DNA of 64,000 nucleotides from NCBI GenBank assembly GCA_000146465.1, contig CP001947.1; one strand, written 5' to 3'. Every line of letters begins with the position of its first letter. Position 1 is the stretch's first letter. The translations under genes and the position numbers were made by a program. Shown here piece after piece: positions 5,535 to 63,951 of the stretch. The notes under the pieces are model-generated. The model made no database searches. It was not told the origin of the DNA and saw nothing but the letters and a program-made list of their open reading frames with translations.

Positions 5535-5882
5535 TTAGAACGTCAGGTCACTATCTTCACATGGAATAGGCTCTGAAAGGAACTTGTAAACCCAAATCCT
5601 CCTTATCTTCATCTCATGTAGGTCCTGTGTCAGGCTATTACAACAGCAGAGGCTTTTAATCGCACTTGTTTCAAAACTCTCTCTATATTGAAGCTTGTCT
5701 TGCACATACCTTCGGATTCCATATACACTGAACGGAACAAGAAAGAACCCAAATGCAGAAAACCTTTTGTTCCTGAATATCCTTGCATAGACTATCGAAG
5801 ATAGATAGCATGGACATAAAGTAGATGCCAGGCAAAATCTGGGCGAAAGTATAGGACACACGAATGGAAGATCATAATCCAT
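5535..5882 (-). CDS. hypothetical small Cys-rich protein (115 aa)
   Basis: The track start is TTG. First ATG is 2 codons in. No family recognised. Confidence 0.35.
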   Translation of the reverse strand: MDYDLPFVCPILSPRFCLASTLCPCYLSSIVYARIFRNKRFSAFGFFLVPFSVYGIRRYVQDKLQYRESFETSAIKSLCCCNSLTQDLHEMKIRRIWVYKFLSEPIPCEDSDLTF

Positions 5883-5994
5883 TACCAAACCTTGAAAGGA
5901 AAAATATATCCTCTCTTCTCCTATTCAAATAGGAGATTGCCCAATAGGATCATCGGCCTCATTAAGGAGGACGATAAGGAGATGCCATGGCAAG

Positions 5995-6300
5995 TCATGC
6001 CATCCAGAATCTTCCATACACTGCTTTCCCACACACATTACATTCATCCCCATCCTGATACTTCTTTATTGCACACAAAGAGCAAAAGCTATGCCCGCAT
6101 TCTGTGAGGACTCTTTCCTCAAATGTCTTCTTGCATATTCCGCACAAAAGATCATCATCTGAAATCATCCCCATCTCTGAAAATCCTATTGATCTTTCAT
6201 GCAAATATTTGCAGGAATCTCCATATCCGCAGTATCCCGTTTCTCTAAATGGCTTGCAGATGATTTTGTGTGTCTCTACCATTTCATTATCTTTGGCCAT
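5995..6300 (-). CDS. CCCH + RING zinc-finger protein (Cwc24/RNF113-like splicing factor)
   Basis: C-x-C-x-H CCCH finger (CKPFRETGYCGYGDSCKYLHE) followed by a C3HC4 RING (CGICKK...CGHSFCSLCA...CNVCGK). First ATG is at 6300. Confidence 0.65.
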   Translation of the reverse strand: MAKDNEMVETHKIICKPFRETGYCGYGDSCKYLHERSIGFSEMGMISDDDLLCGICKKTFEERVLTECGHSFCSLCAIKKYQDGDECNVCGKAVYGRFWMA

Positions 6301-6356
6301 AAGCCCCAAGGATAGTCTTGATGGGTCTTATATTTTTCCCAAAGCAATCTCAACAT

Positions 6357-7385
6357 TCAATCAAATTCGTCAGACAACGGGGCTTCTCTGGGAGGCTTTG
6401 TCCACCATCCATAAAAAGATTTCGAGGCTTTGGAAAGACTCCCAAGTGCTTGAGGAACATACTCTTGAACCTTATTCTTAATGGTACTTCCAAGTTCTTG
6501 AGGAACATACTCTTGGATCTTTTCCCTAACGATGTTTTTAAAATTGGGAATATACTCCTGCAATATCTTCTTTACAATAGATGGAATTATCTTCTTTGCA
6601 TATTCTAGAACAAGGATCTTGGCCTCTTCCTCCGATAGGGAGGAGCCCTTCTTTTTTGAGCTGTGCTCCTCATTTTCGATTGCAATGATCCATTCAAAAA
6701 AGAGAACAATGCATCTCTTTGCTATTGGATATAAAAAGGGAAAAGATACCACGATCAAAAACAAAAAAGTTATTGGTAGTGAAAACTTTTCAAATCTAAA
6801 CGGAACTCTCTCCATTCTCTCTTCAACCTTTCTCTTGATAGTCGACTCCATTGCCATCAGAACAACACCCACCAGATAGGAAATCTCTGAGGGAATTCCT
6901 TCTCTTCCGTGATTCAGAAAATCAACTGCCAGTGCTGTTCCAATGATCAGAATAGTCAAAGATGAAAATATAGTCTTACTGGCAGAATAAGGAGTAGTGG
7001 AATTCAATGTCTCACAAGCATTTGGCAGTAGATATCCCATCGACACAAAAATGGCACACTTGTGGATTCCAGCCTTTCCAGTTTTGAATGCAACAATTGC
7101 CCTGAGAAAGTATATTGTTAGAACAGCTATGCAGAATAGCTTCATCATAGTTTTGATATTTATATCATTCAAAGCAGACTTCCCGTCGCTTCTGTTGATG
7201 GAAATCAATCGCAATAAGAGTCTTACTTGGTAAAGGAAATTCACAAGCATAAGAATCCTAATTATCCAGCTAGCCAACACCCAGTTTACATTTGCGTATT
7301 GTATTCCAACTATAAAGTACAAGGTAAATAGTGTCAAAACCTCACTGCTAAACGGTTTTATGTTTATGGAAGCGATCTTCTCCAT
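6357..7385 (-). CDS. hypothetical multi-pass membrane protein with C-terminal 18-aa tandem repeats
   Basis: 342 aa with several hydrophobic helices. The C-terminus carries three repeats of a K(I/V)QEY(I/V)PQ unit, encoded by a 54-nt tandem DNA repeat. Confidence 0.55.
   Translation of the reverse strand: MEKIASINIKPFSSEVLTLFTLYFIVGIQYANVNWVLASWIIRILMLVNFLYQVRLLLRLISINRSDGKSALNDINIKTMMKLFCIAVLTIYFLRAIVAFKTGKAGIHKCAIFVSMGYLLPNACETLNSTTPYSASKTIFSSLTILIIGTALAVDFLNHGREGIPSEISYLVGVVLMAMESTIKRKVEERMERVPFRFEKFSLPITFLFLIVVSFPFLYPIAKRCIVLFFEWIIAIENEEHSSKKKGSSLSEEEAKILVLEYAKKIIPSIVKKILQEYIPNFKNIVREKIQEYVPQELGSTIKNKVQEYVPQALGSLSKASKSFYGWWTKPPREAPLSDEFD
6420..6625. repeat. 54-nt direct tandem repeat (about 3 units) inside the CDS 6357..7385
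   Basis: The 19-mer cttgaggaacatactcttg recurs 54 nt apart. It encodes ILQEYIPNF / IQEYVPQEL / VQEYVPQAL. Confidence 0.6.
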
Positions 7386-18346: not shown

Positions 18347-18396
18347 ATATCTGTTCCGATTAAATAGAATTTATTTAAGTTTCTATGCATATACAA

Positions 18397-24980: not shown

Positions 24981-26213
24981 TTAGTTGAGAAGTCCTTTTT
25001 CCAGGTTCTTTAAGATTTGGATTCGTTTCCAAACGATAAGCTTTTTTACATACCAAACGTTTCGGTTGAAGATCTTTTTGTGTTTATCGCAACGCCTTCT
25101 CCAATAGTTGTTTAGTGATTCTGGGGTCTTGCAGCAGCTTAGCAAAGACTTGAAGTCTTTTATATTTTTTTCTATAATGTAGTTTCCAGTCCATGTAATT
25201 TTTGATATTAGGGTTTTGAGATAGATCTGGAGTCTTTCTTCTTCCCCTCCAAAGATTTCCAGCTGTTCTTGGGTGGTTTCCTCCACAGAGGTGTCGTAGG
25301 GCTTGTGAAGGATCTTGTTGAGGTTTTTTATGGCTCTCAACACATCAAAATTCTTTTTGTAGTTCATGATATATATGTACAGAAAGGTTGATATCTCTAT
25401 CTCTGGAATGTGGATGGTCCAAGTGGTGTCGAGTGCATAAAAAAATGTCTTGAACTTCCTTTCAAGATCTTCGGTGATCTCCAGGAGAAAGATTCCACAA
25501 ATCCTTTGAAGATACTGGAAAAACATTCCATAATCTCTTCTAAGATCCTGTCTGAAGCAAGCCTTGTTATTTTCAATCTCTTCATCAGGAATTCCTGTTT
25601 CGTTGTAGAATTCCACAATGCGACAAGCATGGCGATTCTTTTGAATGCTAGTGCATTTTTCTCCAAGACGTTTAAGTATTCTATACACAGGAATTAGGCC
25701 TGTGTCTTCAAAGCGGGCCGTAAGGAATCGGGAGTATTTCATTCCTAAAGCCTCAAGCCTTTCCCTTTCTCTTTCTTCGCGTGGATACAGCTGCATCGAC
25801 TGATAATAGTCCAAGTAAAGATAAGTCTTTCCTTCGGCTTCCATCTCTATTCTCTTCGAGTAATAGCCCAGTGCTCTGAGAACCGGATATATCGGCAAGG
25901 GCTTTGAAAGAGCTCTTCCCGGCATTTCTTTAACTGTGTCCGCAAAGATATCGAAGTATCTGGTGGATTTAATACCTAGATAGTTTTTGATGTCATCAAA
26001 CAGTACATAGTAGATCAACAAGTTCACATAGTCCTCGCTATATTTCTTGATTAGGAACTTCCTGGGCTTTTCCTTGTTGATGGTTTTTCCAACAAAAGCT
26101 GGTAGAATTTCGCTTGAAACTTCCATTCTGTCTTTTATGATATGACCCTCCTCACAGATATAGTCGTTCTCTATCATCTCGAGGGGAGCACCACATATTT
26201 CACAGACAATCAT
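24981..26213 (-). CDS. TFIIB-like Zn-ribbon transcription factor (candidate RNA pol I factor Rrn7/TAF1B, or Brf-like)
   Basis: N-terminal C4 Zn ribbon (CEICGAPLEMIENDYICEEGHI) plus a helical body. The track start is TTG. First ATG (MIVCEIC...) is at 26213. Convergent with PUS7, with a 7-bp gap between stops. Confidence 0.5.
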   Translation of the reverse strand: MIVCEICGAPLEMIENDYICEEGHIIKDRMEVSSEILPAFVGKTINKEKPRKFLIKKYSEDYVNLLIYYVLFDDIKNYLGIKSTRYFDIFADTVKEMPGRALSKPLPIYPVLRALGYYSKRIEMEAEGKTYLYLDYYQSMQLYPREERERERLEALGMKYSRFLTARFEDTGLIPVYRILKRLGEKCTSIQKNRHACRIVEFYNETGIPDEEIENNKACFRQDLRRDYGMFFQYLQRICGIFLLEITEDLERKFKTFFYALDTTWTIHIPEIEISTFLYIYIMNYKKNFDVLRAIKNLNKILHKPYDTSVEETTQEQLEIFGGEEERLQIYLKTLISKITWTGNYIIEKNIKDFKSLLSCCKTPESLNNYWRRRCDKHKKIFNRNVWYVKKLIVWKRIQILKNLEKGLLN

Positions 26214-26257: not shown

Positions 26258-27652
26258 ATGGAAAAGAACACAAAGATCAAGGGCGGGTCCTTCAAAACCA
26301 TGGGATTGGATTACAGACTTCTCCGAAACATTCTTTACGAAAACCCAACGCCAATTCAAAGAAAGACAATTCCGTTGGTTCTGGAGAGAAGGAGTCTAAT
26401 GGGGGTTGGAAGAACAGGGAGTGGAAAGACACTATGCTATCTCATCCCTGCTGTGCAACGAGCCATCGAGGGAGAAAGAACACTTGTGATTGCCCCTACC
26501 AAGGAGCTTGTCACCCAGGTCAGAAGGGTACTGAAGAGACTGGCAAGAGGGATAGAGGATGTATGGAAGCTCATTGAAATCAACACTCCAGGAAATATTC
26601 AAAGCACAAGTGTTGAGATGCTGGTGGTTGATGAAATAGATAGAATTCTGGAAGAGCCAAGCCTGAAGTTGGTATTTGATAGGATAAGCGAAGAGGTGGC
26701 GTGCCAGAAGGTATTCTTTAGTGCAACACTCCCAGATCATCCATTGAACATAAAGGTAGTTGAAATAGAGGCCAAGATAAACGAGACGGTTAAGCATTTT
26801 TTCTTCTATGTTCCAAGTGAGAGCAAGGAGGCAGCTCTGCTTCGAGTATTGGATAAGACAAGAAAGACAATTGTGTTTGTTGCAACTAAGTATGCTGTGG
26901 AATTGCTTCTAGAGATCCTTAACAAAAACAATTTCGAGTCACGTGGAATTTATTCTTCAATGGACGATGAGGCAAGAAGAACCAATTTCAAAGACTTCAA
27001 CTCTTCCAAGTTCAACATTCTTGTTGTGACGGATGTTGCAGCACGTGGACTAGACATCCCATATCTTGACACTGTTGTAAACTATGATCTGTGTGACGAA
27101 AGGACATTTCTGCACAGGGTTGGGCGTGTTCGGGGAATGGGAGTGCAATACAGCTTTGTGACATACACAGATGTCTTTCACTTCTTCAACATACAGGAAA
27201 CATATCTTCCCAATGTTGAGATCGGAACAATTCCTCAGGAGTATCTAGATGTTTATGACTTCGGGGAATTTGAGCATCTAAAGTCTGTTGCAAACAAAGG
27301 ACATCAGAAATGCCTTGAATTTAGAAGAAAAGTCAGTGTTCCGGCCGAGTACAAAGACAAGATAAAGGGATTCAAAACTCATTCTATGTTTGAGCATAAG
27401 GAAACACTTCTTGACCAGCTTAAAGAGATGGAGAGCCGCAAGACATTACCTCGAAAGGAAGATGAAAAAGTAGAAAACAAAGAGTACAGAGACCAGACAT
27501 TTATACCCTATGCCCGTAAGGACTCTAGAATTCATTCATCTGCGTTTGGAGTGGCGAAAGATGATTACGTCAGAGAAAGAAAGGAAAAATTTTCTTTTTC
27601 CATGATGAGGAGGAGAACAGCAAAGAAAACGGCGGAAACAAGTAAAAAATAA
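26258..27652 (+). CDS. DEAD-box ATP-dependent RNA helicase (sex-locus-type RNA helicase)
   Basis: Q motif, motif I GRTGSGKT, Ia APTKELV, II DEID (VVDEIDRIL), III SAT, VI HRVGRVRG. 464 aa. ATG confirmed. Confidence 0.85.
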   Translation: MEKNTKIKGGSFKTMGLDYRLLRNILYENPTPIQRKTIPLVLERRSLMGVGRTGSGKTLCYLIPAVQRAIEGERTLVIAPTKELVTQVRRVLKRLARGIEDVWKLIEINTPGNIQSTSVEMLVVDEIDRILEEPSLKLVFDRISEEVACQKVFFSATLPDHPLNIKVVEIEAKINETVKHFFFYVPSESKEAALLRVLDKTRKTIVFVATKYAVELLLEILNKNNFESRGIYSSMDDEARRTNFKDFNSSKFNILVVTDVAARGLDIPYLDTVVNYDLCDERTFLHRVGRVRGMGVQYSFVTYTDVFHFFNIQETYLPNVEIGTIPQEYLDVYDFGEFEHLKSVANKGHQKCLEFRRKVSVPAEYKDKIKGFKTHSMFEHKETLLDQLKEMESRKTLPRKEDEKVENKEYRDQTFIPYARKDSRIHSSAFGVAKDDYVRERKEKFSFSMMRRRTAKKTAETSKK

Positions 27653-27749: not shown

Positions 27750-27822
27750 GGCCTCATAGCTCAATGGTTAGAGTGTCGGCCTACGGAGCCGAAGGTTGAG
27801 GGTTCGAGTCCCTCTGGGGTCG
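27750..27822 (+). tRNA. tRNA-Arg (anticodon ACG)
   Basis: Cloverleaf: acceptor GGCCTCA/TGGGGTC, D-arm GCTC-AATGGTTA-GAGT, anticodon stem TCGGC/GCCGA with loop CTACGGA, T-arm GAGGG-TTCGAGT-CCCTC, discriminator G. No encoded CCA. Confidence 0.85.
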
Positions 27823-28404
27823 GCTGTCTTTTGTGCTTCTTTTTTTCTTCCTAGACTTTTTCATCCACATCTCTAGTGCATTGCTTCTGTATCTGCCCTG
27901 CACATCTTCATCCAACGAGTTCCACATCTTAATGAACATACGAACGTTTTCTTCTGGAGACACATTTATGTCGCCACAGATGTCGAAGAGTTCGTTTACA
28001 AAGAAAAGATATCCTGAACACTCCCATCGCTGTATATCCCGTATTTTAACATATTTTCTTAGCTTCTTTATCGTGTTTGTATCATTGACTAAATTGCCGT
28101 CGTCACAGCCATCCAACTCATTGGCTTCCTCAAGATCTTTATTGCATTTTTCCACATACATATTCCTCTCCTCGTCCGGCATTTCCTTCCATACAGCCAT
28201 CATATTCAAGGCAGTATCGACACAACTTGTGTATTTGTAATTATTACTTTGGAAAAAGTCCCTGGCAAAGACCGTGAATGGAGATCTCTGCTTGGTAGGC
28301 ATTGAATACAAGGATTCAAAAAATTTCATCTCGGGGGTATGTATCTTCGAAAAATACACCAAAGGAATTAGATAGTACAGTAGAGGCCAATAAATAGAGT
28401 CCAT
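27781..28404 (-). CDS. HMG-box protein (divergent single HMG box with extended C-terminal region)
   Basis: HMG box PTKQRSPFTVFARDFF...WKEMPDEERNMYVEK. The hydrophobic first 25 aa suggest the real start may be M26 (about 28329). The last 14 codons (...RDSNPQPSAP) are encoded antisense to the tRNA-Arg. Confidence 0.6.
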   Translation of the reverse strand: MDSIYWPLLYYLIPLVYFSKIHTPEMKFFESLYSMPTKQRSPFTVFARDFFQSNNYKYTSCVDTALNMMAVWKEMPDEERNMYVEKCNKDLEEANELDGCDDGNLVNDTNTIKKLRKYVKIRDIQRWECSGYLFFVNELFDICGDINVSPEENVRMFIKMWNSLDEDVQGRYRSNALEMWMKKSRKKKRSTKDSRPQRDSNPQPSAP

Positions 28405-28411
28405 TTAATCC

Positions 28412-28957
28412 CTATTTTCCCACCAGGCCCGAATTCACATTCTTTTCTTCAGCAATCTTGTTATAGACGGCCTTCTCGTCGTCGCTGAGTTCTTTCCATC
28501 TCTTTGCAACAGCAGACGTAGTCTCCATCATCGTGAAGCTGGGATTCTCTTCAGAAACAGCTTTTCGGACTGCCTTAAAGAACTCGTTGTACCCAGTTAC
28601 TTTCTTGGCTCCTTTTTTCTTTCTTCCAGCTGCTGCTTCATCAGCTGCAACCTTCTCAAGATAATCCTGGTACTCATCGCTCTTCTTGTATTCCTCAACC
28701 TTTGCCAGATATAGCTCTCTCTCCTTGTTTGAAATCTTGTTGTATTCCTCTCTTTCCTCATCAGAGAGCTTCTTCCACATCTCAGAAATAGATCTTCCTT
28801 GGTCTGCTACGGGTAGCTTGCTCAGTTCCTCATTCTTCTTCCTTTGCTCCTGCCCAAAAATAAAGTACCCCGACATAGGCTTCTTCGGTGCATTGGGGTC
28901 CTTGCGTTTTTTTACTGCCGCTTTACTCCTTGGCTTTTTGCTCTTCTCAGTTACCAT
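28412..28957 (-). CDS. HMG-box protein with two HMGB-type boxes
   Basis: Box 1 PKKPMSGYFIFGQEQRKK...ISEMWKKLSDEEREEY. Box 2 KKVTGYNEFFKAVRK...VAKRWKELSDDEKAVY. ATG confirmed. Only 7 bp from the downstream HMG gene. Confidence 0.8.
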   Translation of the reverse strand: MVTEKSKKPRSKAAVKKRKDPNAPKKPMSGYFIFGQEQRKKNEELSKLPVADQGRSISEMWKKLSDEEREEYNKISNKERELYLAKVEEYKKSDEYQDYLEKVAADEAAAGRKKKGAKKVTGYNEFFKAVRKAVSEENPSFTMMETTSAVAKRWKELSDDEKAVYNKIAEEKNVNSGLVGK

Positions 28958-29083: not shown

Positions 29084-29860
29084 TTACAAAATATCATTCT
29101 CGGGCCTGAGTCTCTCCTTAACAATCTCAAGTAGCTTCTTCACCTCGGAAAGCATAGCATGTGTTGAAATGTATTCCTCTATGACTCTGTGTGCCTCATT
29201 CAAGTCTCCCTGAAGTGCATTACATACCTCCTTCTCATCTCCACTGACATCAAGATCTAGAGGCGTCCCCTCGATGGAATAGCAGAGAAATCCACAGAAG
29301 GTGTATATGTTTTCCTTGAACCCCAAGAATATTTTAGCTGCCTCTCCATACCTTCCAAGTTCTATATACACCTCTGCAATGTCTCTCATTGCCTTTTTCT
29401 TATGATGCTTCCAGCTGCTTCCACAGTAGCACTCAGCAACCTTCTGCAGGCATTCCAGGCATCCCTCGAGATTTCCTTCCTTTCTTAGTATCTCAGATGC
29501 TCTTTGGAAACTCACTGCTGCCAAGCTCTCTCGTCCACATTGCTTGGAATACATCCCAGACTTCTTATATGCCGAAATGGCTTTTTCAGGATATTCATCC
29601 TCACATGTCTGTGCTATCTTCTCATACACCTGCGAAGCTTGATATCTTCCATACTCTCCGTCCTCCATCTCATAGGTCTTTGCCGCCTCCTCGTAGTATC
29701 GTATCTTTTCAGATGTCTCCTCTTCCATATTTCCAATCTCCATGAAAATCTCCGCAGAGCTTTCATAGTCTGGCGATGAAAACAGATTGAATGGAAATGC
29801 TCCCTTTGTCCTCAATTTCTCTGCTTCCTTTAGTTTTCTGGTTTTGGATTCAGCATCCAT
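29084..29860 (-). CDS. SEC17: alpha-soluble NSF attachment protein (alpha-SNAP/Sec17)
   Basis: TPR-like helical repeats (AAKTYE..., AISAYKKSG..., AAKIFLGFKE). N-terminus LSGFEKAEVLKK...F.LF. The track start is TTG. First ATG (MDAESKT...) is at 29860. Confidence 0.7.
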   Translation of the reverse strand: MDAESKTRKLKEAEKLRTKGAFPFNLFSSPDYESSAEIFMEIGNMEEETSEKIRYYEEAAKTYEMEDGEYGRYQASQVYEKIAQTCEDEYPEKAISAYKKSGMYSKQCGRESLAAVSFQRASEILRKEGNLEGCLECLQKVAECYCGSSWKHHKKKAMRDIAEVYIELGRYGEAAKIFLGFKENIYTFCGFLCYSIEGTPLDLDVSGDEKEVCNALQGDLNEAHRVIEEYISTHAMLSEVKKLLEIVKERLRPENDIL

Positions 29861-29966: not shown

Positions 29967-30890
29967 TTAATGGGAGCAGAAGGGCTTTCTGCTGAGATTG
30001 TATATTAGTATCCCCACAATACTTATGGCTAATCCTGCATAGTTCAAACTGCTTAGGGTGATATCTTTTGTTACTATTGCATAAAAAATAATTATCAGCT
30101 CCTTAACAATCCCTGCAACACTTAGAAACACAACACCGGTTTCCGAAACAAGCATGAACTCTGCACATAGTAGCGTAAATGATAGGACCCCGCAAAGAGA
30201 AATATACCCAAAATTTCGTAGGGCAGCATCAAACGTGTTGAAAAACCTAGATGTTGCTATCTCCATGAGACCTTCAACATGCAAAGAAATTAAGAGGAGG
30301 AGGAACGATATGGGAAGGCAAAGGTCCCTTATGGTTACAAGAATTCCTTCCTTCCGGACTTCCTGATTTCTAATAAGGTATTGGACAAACGCCCATCGGA
30401 ACCCTGCCATCAAAGAAGCAAACGAGATGGTTCCGAATCCAATAATATCAAAGCTTGTGTTTTTTATTGACGTGAGAAACACTCCCACGCCAATGGTGAA
30501 TATCGTCAGAAAAAACGTTATCGATGGTTTCTCGATCCCAAGTGCAAATCCAAATAACAGAATAAACACCGGAGAAGAAGACTTCACCATTGTGTAGAAT
30601 GCAAGGGTTGCCGACCTTAGAGATATGGATGAAAGGCCTATGTCTGTGGCTCCTGCAAGGGCACATGGAAACGAAGGCCCAAAGTAATTAGGCTTTGGAG
30701 CTTTTTCCTTCTGAAACCTCAGGGCTGTGGATGCTCCGAAAAAATGGATCAGGTTCTGCATGGACGCCTTGAACAAGGGAAAGGAGAAATTGTATGTCTT
30801 TTTGGAAAGCAGAAACGATGTTAGATATCCCAGGCTTAATGACAGAACATAATACATGAGCACTAATCCCAGTACTCTGATTCTGTTCAT
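29967..30890 (-). CDS. TPT: triose-phosphate/sugar-phosphate transporter family protein (TPT, DMT superfamily)
   Basis: About 8-10 TM helices. TPT signatures ATLAFYTMVKSSSPVFILLFGFALGIEKPS and NYAGLAISIVGILIYN. ATG confirmed. Confidence 0.8.
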   Translation of the reverse strand: MNRIRVLGLVLMYYVLSLSLGYLTSFLLSKKTYNFSFPLFKASMQNLIHFFGASTALRFQKEKAPKPNYFGPSFPCALAGATDIGLSSISLRSATLAFYTMVKSSSPVFILLFGFALGIEKPSITFFLTIFTIGVGVFLTSIKNTSFDIIGFGTISFASLMAGFRWAFVQYLIRNQEVRKEGILVTIRDLCLPISFLLLLISLHVEGLMEIATSRFFNTFDAALRNFGYISLCGVLSFTLLCAEFMLVSETGVVFLSVAGIVKELIIIFYAIVTKDITLSSLNYAGLAISIVGILIYNLSRKPFCSH

Positions 30891-31016: not shown

Positions 31017-31210
31017 CTACCTCTCAAGCCAATCGGCTTTGATCAAGTGTAGTATCTGTTCTTGCCAGTGTAAGAACTGGCATTATCCGTAAGGATAAAT
31101 TCATCGAATTTTTGGATGGCAGGGTGATGTAGAGGAGCTTGAGCGCTTGCGTTTCGGCCAATCTACTTGAGGTCTGCAGGCTTCTGGGCTGTAGAGCCTA
31201 GGAAAAGCCG
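31017..31210 (+). ncRNA. U2: U2 spliceosomal snRNA
   Basis: GGCUUUGAUCAAGUGUAGUAUCUGUUCUUGCCAGUGUAAGAACUGGCA is near-identical to the universal U2 5' region (branch-point interaction GUAGUA, stem IIa). Stem-loop I AAGCC-AAUC-GGCUU. Sm site AAUUUUUGG at about 31107. 3' stem-loops then a T7 run at 31211-17. Confidence 0.85.
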
Positions 31211-37539: not shown

Positions 37540-37591
37540 ATAAGCAATGGTAATTGAAGGGATTCTATCTAAAAAGAATTTGGAAACTGAT

Positions 37592-49055: not shown

Positions 49056-49158
49056 TGAAAGTCCTACAGATAGCATTCTTATGATTGAATAAATTAGATC
49101 CTTTTAATTGTAATACTCTAGACTTCCAGAACGCATTCTTTGCTTACCTGTATCCAAT

Positions 49159-63879: not shown

Positions 63880-63951
63880 GGTTGCGTGGTGTAATGGTTA
63901 TCACTTCAGACTCTGAATCTGACAATCTGAGTTCGAATCTCGGCGCGACCA
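63880..63951 (+). tRNA. tRNA-Gln (anticodon CUG)
   Basis: GGTTGCGTGGTGTAATGGTTATCACTTCAGACTCTGAATCTGACAATCTGAGTTCGAATCTCGGCGCGACC + A. Acceptor GGTTGCG/CGCGACC, anticodon loop CTCTGAA, T-loop TTCGAAT. Close to canonical eukaryotic tRNA-Gln. Confidence 0.85.

Follow-up and report, generated by a model that had tools for sequence, protein, structure and literature searches.

The HMG and weak HMG genes of the Encephalitozoon intestinalis sex-related locus: an HMGB-type protein beside a probable ancient two-box paralogue

The gene pair at positions 27781-28957 on the minus strand of a 64-kb stretch of Encephalitozoon intestinalis ATCC 50506 chromosome VI (contig CP001947.1; the whole stretch is called the window below) is the published "HMG" and "weak HMG" pair and very probably consists of two separate, adjacent genes on the same strand. 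The upstream gene would encode an HMGB-type protein and the downstream gene, read from methionine 26 (M26) of its maximal open reading frame (ORF), an ancient and fast-evolving two-box paralogue, each gene having expression signals of its own. The original prediction had placed two HMG-box ORFs here, both on the minus strand, and they are present in the ORF list with 181 and 207 aa; it had also put them inside a syntenic block, and the flanking genes of the TPT/HMG/RNA-helicase block, a triose-phosphate-transporter family gene (TPT) and an RNA helicase, were both found by Pfam. The pair, its position and the lack of idiomorphs are already known (2008-2010), both genes are annotated in GenBank, and as a discovery the pair matters little, the additions made here being incremental. 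What we did not find in the searchable literature is the two-box nature of weak HMG, its orthologues in Ordospora and other relatives, its acidic and conserved box 2, the antisense overlap with a tRNA gene and the signals in the spacer.

The weak HMG is a two-box HMG protein, collinear with its neighbour, and at the family level its place among the HMG-box proteins is beyond doubt. Taken as a single sequence, the downstream protein matches the Pfam HMG_box profile with 17.1-17.7 bits (E = 0.005-0.0075), the 207-aa ORF at residues 41-94 with 17.1 bits (E = 0.0075). The aligned orthologues all match HMG_box at E ≤ 1 (9/9), the best of them at 4.6e-9, and comparison by hhalign of the weak-HMG family with the neighbouring HMG family gives a probability of 94% (E = 1.1e-7) with nine sequences and of 96.7% (E = 3.6e-10) with eleven, both alignments being collinear over the two boxes and the linker between them. 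Against the PDB, the weak-HMG family profile finds TFAM (6e-13) and Abf2 (6e-7), and also HMGB1/3, TOX, NHP6A and UBF, and its hits listed at E ≤ 0.1 include no SOX, SRY or LEF chain. When searched against 1.84 billion representatives, a profile of the family returned its orthologues first and then generic multi-HMG-box proteins. The HMG-box profile search proposed in the original prediction is therefore positive for the upstream protein (75.2 bits) and for the downstream family, and negative for the downstream protein alone (below 25.4 bits), and the description of the downstream gene as more divergent is fair, its single sequence being below the threshold, while as an HMG-box protein it is secured by its family, in which the nine orthologues match.

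Box 1 of weak HMG aligns with box A of the neighbouring family at an hhalign probability of 96.3%. The "second degenerate box-like segment" that had been suspected behind it is real: it is recognised as an HMG box by hhalign (96.3% against box A, 77% against box B and 95.7% against box 1 of weak HMG itself) and no other part of the protein is conserved as well, since it contains the majority of the invariant columns and has the signature WEYSGYLFFV...VSPEEN...MW..L..E.Q.(K/R)YR. The AlphaFold2 (AF2) model made from an eight-sequence alignment has a mean predicted local distance difference test score (pLDDT) of 62.5 and contains two three-helix units, with helices at residues 17-28, 36-49 and 52-72 in box 1 (pLDDT 72-84) and at 101-118, 125-138 and 141-167 in box 2; a model from the single 207-aa ORF sequence (pLDDT 41.7) was unusable. 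The top Foldseek matches of the weak-HMG model are two-box proteins, at E-values of 0.05-0.5.

The upstream protein is a clear case, as had been predicted, of a two-box HMGB/Nhp6-like protein. It matches Pfam HMG_box (PF00505) in two stretches with 75.2 bits, against a gathering score of 25.4 bits (E = 5.4e-21), and box B additionally gives a match to HMG_WDHD1 at residues 120-166. Its family profile finds the HMGB1 A-B tandem (5e-20) and NHP6A (5.5e-13) in the PDB, together with Babesia NHP1 and HMGB2/3, and reaches SOX boxes only at about 1e-4. The protein is 87-92% identical across the Encephalitozoon-like lineages; its N-terminal arm carries a charge of +7 to +8 and both boxes are near-neutral. 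The upstream gene encodes a tandem two-box protein of the HMGB type, which has a basic N-terminus and evolves slowly, and which by its family membership would most likely be a general, non-sequence-specific DNA-bending chromatin protein like HMGB1 and Nhp6, and which would bind the minor groove and bend the DNA in chromatin as these proteins do.

The helix-I motifs of the four boxes are KPMSGY, KVTGY, QRSPF and ECSGY, with Ser or Thr at the key position. Sequence-specific boxes of the SOX/MATA type have Asn at this position (RPMNAF), and HMGB-type boxes have (R/K)PxSAY with Ser. In the PDB ranking HMGB, NHP6, TFAM and Abf2 come ahead of SOX, among references that do not include a MATA_HMG profile or SexP/SexM, and the fold search does not separate the HMGB from the SOX/MATA classes. 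It is thus well supported, if not formally closed, that both are architectural, non-sequence-specific proteins of the predicted HMGB class. The earlier suggestion of a sex-type HMG protein recruited beside a general HMGB was not borne out, since both profiles best match HMGB/TFAM/Abf2/NHP6, with SOX at about 1e-4 or not listed, and nothing here ties either gene to sex determination.

Only 7 nt separate the HMG stop codon from the first in-frame ATG (M1) of the 207-aa ORF, and the idea that the two genes are co-transcribed was due to this spacing. The 7 bp hold for the maximal ORFs; for the real genes M26 is supported as the true start of weak HMG, the 7-bp spacing is then an artefact of the maximal ORF, and the genes would lie 82 bp apart. 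A start at M26 had been considered likelier originally, and several observations agree with it. The GenBank record Eint_061210 has 182 aa and begins at M26, and the E. cuniculi weak-HMG record has likewise been shortened, from 219 to 194 aa. The 25-codon hydrophobic leader (28330-28404) is absent from all weak-HMG orthologues aligned, which start at the equivalent of M26. Just 5' of M26 stands the sequence ACCCCCGAG; in 7/7 orthologues checked the weak-HMG start has a CCC run before it, and M1 is without such a run. In the window, CCC is found within 12 nt 5' of the first ATG in 31 of the 57 long ORFs, compared to 6.7% of all ATGs. Three relatives have ACG or GCG in place of the M1 ATG, and this ATG is contained in a conserved non-coding element, ATTAAAnGGnTCTATTTA, which begins 2 nt past the HMG stop. 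The Kozak-type bias at +4/+5 does not discriminate between M1 (ATGGA) and M26 (ATGAA). In E. cuniculi the 5' untranslated regions (5'UTRs) are shorter than 7 nt and a CCC-like motif lies immediately 5' of the coding start, a rule that was applied by Peyretaillade et al. to correct 364 start codons. The leader was also considered as a signal peptide or transmembrane anchor, which was rejected as it is not conserved, lacks its ATG in three relatives and overlaps the conserved non-coding motif. As a separate observation, the CCC enrichment in the window matches the CCC-like start-site motif of E. cuniculi, and long ORFs without CCC may have mis-set starts.

A recognisable version of ATTAAAnGGnTCTATTTA is present in 7 of 8 lineages and consists of an ATTAAA/AATAAA hexamer, followed in most of them by a (T)TCTATTTA-like sequence. 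The motif ATTAAAnGGnyTCTATTTA, with up to three mismatches, has five sites in the window where 0.96 are expected, and these genomes may use it generally as an element of 3'-end processing; for the copy behind the HMG gene, ATTAAATGGACTCTATTTA, a 3'-end function is suggested by analogy with poly(A) data from E. cuniculi. At least some of the sites lie just 3' of stop codons. The spacer between the two genes is 82 nt in E. intestinalis and 28-82 nt in seven lineages, and 82 nt is ordinary for this genome, the long ORFs of the window being separated by a median of 85.5 nt. Each gene would therefore appear to have its own signals, an ATTAAA-type 3' element after the HMG stop and a CCC-like motif before the weak-HMG start, and these motifs suggest that each most likely has an mRNA of its own, with read-through now and then as is seen at other places in such compact genomes. 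For E. cuniculi, overrun of transcription has been documented along with a mixture of mono- and polycistronic transcripts, and for this reason read-through transcripts across HMG and weak HMG may occur, rather than transcripts of a dedicated operon.

The relatives of the locus comprise 11 lineages, namely the four named Encephalitozoon species, two Encephalitozoon-like lineages (L001 and L002), Ordospora colligata (L003/L004) and the lineages L005, L007, L008 and L009, the HMG proteins of the last four being only 59-67% identical to that of E. intestinalis. The order SNAP-like gene, two-box HMG, weak HMG is kept in all 11, with intact weak-HMG ORFs of 163-201 aa at the same position, including the orthologue of Ordospora colligata (P0018). 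The SNAP-like orthologue (256-281 aa) is in the same place in all related loci, and so is the helicase in 7/7 loci that reach that far, of the eight fetched. E. cuniculi has ECU06_1260 ("weak similarity to HMG") as its weak-HMG orthologue. The gene model publicly available for L001 (P0006, 146 aa, Logan assembly) starts at an internal ATG; the ORF at 5869-6441 is 44 codons longer at the 5' side, begins at a CCC-preceded ATG, includes box 1 and encodes 190 aa. A library-wide profile search gave no further full-length weak-HMG members, and none from Nosema, Enterocytozoon or other more distant genera. The pair predates the split between Encephalitozoon and Ordospora, and the statement of Lee et al. 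(2010; PMC2866331) that weak HMG lacks conservation beyond Encephalitozoon no longer holds with the newer genomes. The 11 orthologous loci, with the box-2 signature WEYSGY...VSPEEN...MW, provide a better handle than the 2010 data for finding weak HMG elsewhere.

The weak HMG and HMG paralogues are about 20-28% identical. In those weak-HMG members that evolve more slowly, the linker has retained a YKKSxxYxxF motif (in L008, INYKKSGLYEDF) which resembles the EYKKSxEYxxY of the neighbour. Taking together the shared two-box plan, the collinear alignment and this common linker motif, an ancient tandem duplication is the simplest origin, and weak HMG is probably an ancient tandem paralogue of the upstream gene. 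The duplication that had been proposed on the basis of the tandem pair, for which a synteny comparison was suggested, would accordingly be old, both HMG genes being found at this locus in the 11 lineages, and it is plausible only.

In every comparison with E. intestinalis, weak HMG diverges more than any other gene of the block; it is 52% identical to its L002 counterpart, where the ATP-binding, TPT, SNAP-like, HMG and helicase proteins are 80-92% identical. Among the Encephalitozoon-like lineages the proportion of nonsynonymous differences (pN) is 0.29-0.40 for weak HMG and 0.04-0.07 for HMG, and the synonymous sites are saturated (pS 0.78-0.93), so that what can be stated is that pN is much lower than pS, and not a dN/dS ratio. 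Since pN is far below pS, weak HMG is constrained, and it is a fast-evolving gene under purifying selection and not a pseudogene.

The boxes of weak HMG are net acidic, which sets them apart from typical DNA-binding boxes. In E. intestinalis box 1 has a net charge of -2 to -3 and box 2 of -3 to -4, depending on the boundaries chosen, and in 9/11 lineages the net charge of box 2 lies between -3 and -8; only the C-terminal tail of the protein is basic. The acidity of the conserved box 2 is unusual for a DNA-binding HMG box. The boxes have lost most of their positive charge, and with a box 2 that is both conserved and acidic, contact with DNA would, speculatively, probably rely on box 1 and the basic tail, whereas box 2 might serve another conserved interaction that is not necessarily DNA binding.

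The last 42 nt of the weak-HMG coding sequence (27781-27822; 13 codons and the stop) are antisense to the 3' part of the tRNA-Arg(ACG) gene, and its stop codon, TAG, exactly complements tRNA positions 32-34 (C32-U33-A34). E. intestinalis, E. hellem, E. cuniculi and L001 share the identical C-terminal peptide encoded there, RPQRDSNPQPSAP, and this conservation is due to constraint on the tRNA and not on the protein. In Ordospora the peptide over the tRNA is GSNPQPSVP. The overlap is also present in L001 (6400-6441), L003 (7138-7180) and L007 (7016-7042), while the E. romaleae weak HMG uses another reading frame over the same tRNA, and in L002 and L005 the gene terminates before it. The tRNA-Arg gene itself is in the same position in 5/5 loci scanned (L001, L002, L003, L005 and L007).

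The closest known systems are HMGB1 (A-B tandem), TFAM, Abf2 and Candida Gcf1, which likewise have two boxes, a short linker and basic extensions, and which are the best profile or fold matches of the proteins described here. HMGB1 has in addition a long acidic C-terminal tail, which is missing from both proteins. The yeast proteins Nhp6A/B share with the upstream HMG the non-sequence-specific type of box and the basic N-terminal arm, but have one box where the proteins here have two. To our knowledge microsporidia have no mitochondrial genome, and a TFAM- or Abf2-like role in packaging mitochondrial DNA is therefore not expected.

Some points weigh against the reading of the locus as an HMGB-type gene with an ancient two-box paralogue, each with its own signals. 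The E. intestinalis weak HMG taken alone is below the Pfam HMG_box gathering score (17.1-17.7 versus 25.4 bits), the AF2 model is moderately confident (62.5), and the Foldseek E-values (0.05-0.5) are not significant. Box 2 of weak HMG scores better against box A (96.3%) than against box B (77%), so that the orthology of the two proteins cannot be paired box for box, and a whole-gene tandem duplication is plausible rather than demonstrated. Likewise, the label "general chromatin protein" for the upstream HMG is taken from its family, and separate transcription of the two genes from motifs.

It may be asked whether the two ORFs form an obligate bicistronic unit, in which a 7-bp spacing would force co-transcription and perhaps couple translation. 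The maximal ORFs are indeed 7 nt apart, spacers are short in all relatives (28-82 nt), and polycistronic and overrunning transcripts exist in E. cuniculi; we nevertheless consider such a unit unlikely, because the first ATG is not the start and the real spacer is close to the median gap, because the spacers of the relatives examined contain a conserved ATTAAA-type element and the CCC-like motif, and because of the very short 5'UTRs of E. cuniculi (below 7 nt), with the CCC-like motif adjoining the coding start. The conservation described above bears on two further explanations. The downstream ORF might be suspected to be a duplicate in decay or a product of chance, in view of its weak single-sequence Pfam score, of an interspecies identity far below that of its neighbours and of a 3' end that extends into a tRNA gene; this is made extremely improbable by the intact ORFs (163-201 aa) that 11 lineages have at this position, by a strongly non-uniform conservation with invariant core residues in box 2, by a pN well below pS and by a conserved start motif. 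A tandem duplication of recent date, confined to E. intestinalis or to Encephalitozoon, would agree with the distribution seen by Lee et al. (2010), and is refuted by the same-position orthologues in Ordospora colligata and in the four lineages with HMG proteins of 59-67% identity, as well as by the low identity between the paralogues (about 20-28%).

The remaining alternative concerns sex. The order of the genes (TPT, SNAP-like, HMG and weak HMG on the minus strand, then tRNA-Arg and the DEAD-box helicase on the plus strand) contains the TPT - HMG - RNA helicase cluster by which a zygomycete-type sex locus is recognised, and in Phycomyces, Mucor and Rhizopus a TPT-family gene, one or more HMG-box genes and a DEAD-box helicase are likewise clustered. 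The zygomycete SexM and SexP proteins are, in contrast, single-box and idiomorphic, with 14-20% similarity, whereas the E. intestinalis locus carries in cis a pair of two-box genes that are not idiomorphic, and has an extra SNAP-like gene and a tRNA-Arg gene in the cluster. The pair could be regarded as a true sex-determining module, that is, as cis-linked equivalents of SexP and SexM in a homothallic organism, at a locus shared by descent with Mucoromycota. Within the block weak HMG evolves fastest, and rapid evolution is common among reproductive genes. Both proteins resemble HMGB, TFAM and Abf2 and not SOX-type proteins, and carry Ser or Thr at the position that Asn occupies in sequence-specific boxes. 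The sex-related locus is reportedly also the subject of a 2008 paper by Lee and co-workers in Current Biology. Lee et al. (2010; PLoS One 5:e10539, PMC2866331), who raised the possibility of a sex-determining role themselves, described the "HMG" and "weak HMG" pair in this locus, E. intestinalis included, with the same genes in the order TPT - HP (hypothetical protein) - HMG (two boxes) - weak HMG - RNA helicase and with the same contrast between HMG (about 90% identity) and weak HMG (about 45-55%). The same study (PMC2866331) found no idiomorphs among 15 Encephalitozoon isolates (11 of E. cuniculi, 3 of E. intestinalis and 1 of E. hellem), and found the flanking TPT and helicase to be paralogous, not orthologous, to the zygomycete sex-locus genes; the window itself represents a single haplotype. 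Koestler and Ebersberger (2011) argued that the shared gene order is no more than expected by chance and found that gene-order conservation with zygomycetes is no greater than with other fungi or humans, by which the homology of the sex locus is disputed, and in published analyses the HMG tree gave no resolution. Altogether we regard a sex-determining module as improbable, and the additions made here on weak HMG (two-box paralogue, age, constraint, acidic box 2 and tRNA overlap) slightly weaken the "sex locus" reading further. Equally doubtful is the more speculative picture of weak HMG as a fast-evolving, largely acidic paralogue that acts with or against its neighbour, for instance as a stage-specific or mating-related regulator, which would amount to a cis-linked, homothallic SexP/SexM-like pair in which the acidic box 2 is a protein-interaction surface and does not bind DNA. 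An HMGB-type gene followed by an ancient two-box paralogue is the reading preferred here. The Ordospora genome paper makes no mention of HMG or sex, a literature search by the locus tags ECU06_1260, ECU06_1270, Eint_061210 and Eint_061220 found nothing, and no later paper on weak HMG was found in the searchable literature.

Table 1. Features of the HMG/weak HMG block and other sites in the window (window coordinates).
Feature	Position	Strand	Evidence or remark
410-aa protein	24981-26213	-	adjoins the helicase
DEAD-box RNA helicase	26258-27652	+	Pfam DEAD 1.2e-26, Helicase_C 2.4e-23; one flank of the "sex-related locus"
tRNA-Arg(ACG)	27750-27822	+	ARAGORN; Rfam tRNA 67.3 bits; convergent with the weak-HMG gene
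Weak HMG gene	27781-28329	-	182 aa + stop; 100% match to Eint_061210 / ADM11727.2
Basic C-terminal tail of weak HMG (KSRKKKR...RPQRDSNPQPSAP)	27784-27858	-	net charge +7
Weak-HMG box 2	27859-28035	-	residues 99-157
Weak-HMG box 1	28120-28305	-	residues 9-70 of the 182-aa protein; Pfam HMG_box 16-70
Spacer between HMG and weak HMG	28330-28411	-	82 nt
CCCCC ("CCC-like") motif	28333-28337	-	3 nt 5' of the M26 ATG
Putative 3' element ATTAAATGGACTCTATTTA in the spacer	28391-28409	-	poly(A)-signal-like hexamer and conserved downstream element
HMG gene	28412-28957	-	181 aa + stop; exact match to ADM11728.1 "high mobility group protein"
HMG box B of the upstream protein	28436-28606	-	about residues 118-174; second Pfam stretch, alignment
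HMG box A of the upstream protein	28682-28897	-	about residues 21-92; Pfam stretch 24-91, alignment
SNAP-like TPR protein	29084-29860 (or to 29926)	-	Pfam SNAP 6.7e-12; the "hypothetical protein" (HP) of the published locus
TPT family gene	29967-30890	-	Pfam TPT 1.2e-17; other flank of the locus
U2 spliceosomal small nuclear RNA gene	31017-31209	+	Rfam RF00004, 83.5 bits
ATTAAAnGGnyTCTATTTA-like site	18359-18379	both
ATTAAAnGGnyTCTATTTA-like site	37553-37571	+
ATTAAAnGGnyTCTATTTA-like site	49090-49108	-
tRNA-Gln(CTG)	63880-63951	+	close to the end of the window

G+C makes up about 40% of the window and coding sequence about 87%, and its base composition, coding density and gaps are typical of a compact microsporidian genome. 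The U2 small nuclear RNA gene lies between the TPT gene and an ATP_bind_1 gene, which is GPN-loop GTPase-like, and directly adjoins the "sex-related" block. On the other side of the block, the 410-aa protein next to the helicase is the second fastest-evolving of the block, with 58% identity to L002 (most neighbours 80-92%) and 36-46% to the more distant lineages, and its counterparts at the related loci are recorded without a Pfam domain. The syntenic loci themselves differ in G+C content, with 0.53-0.57 in L001, L005 and L007 versus 0.38-0.43 in E. intestinalis, L002, L003 and L009, which points to strong compositional drift among close relatives, and despite this spread the gene order is identical in all of these loci through the helicase and the 410-aa gene.

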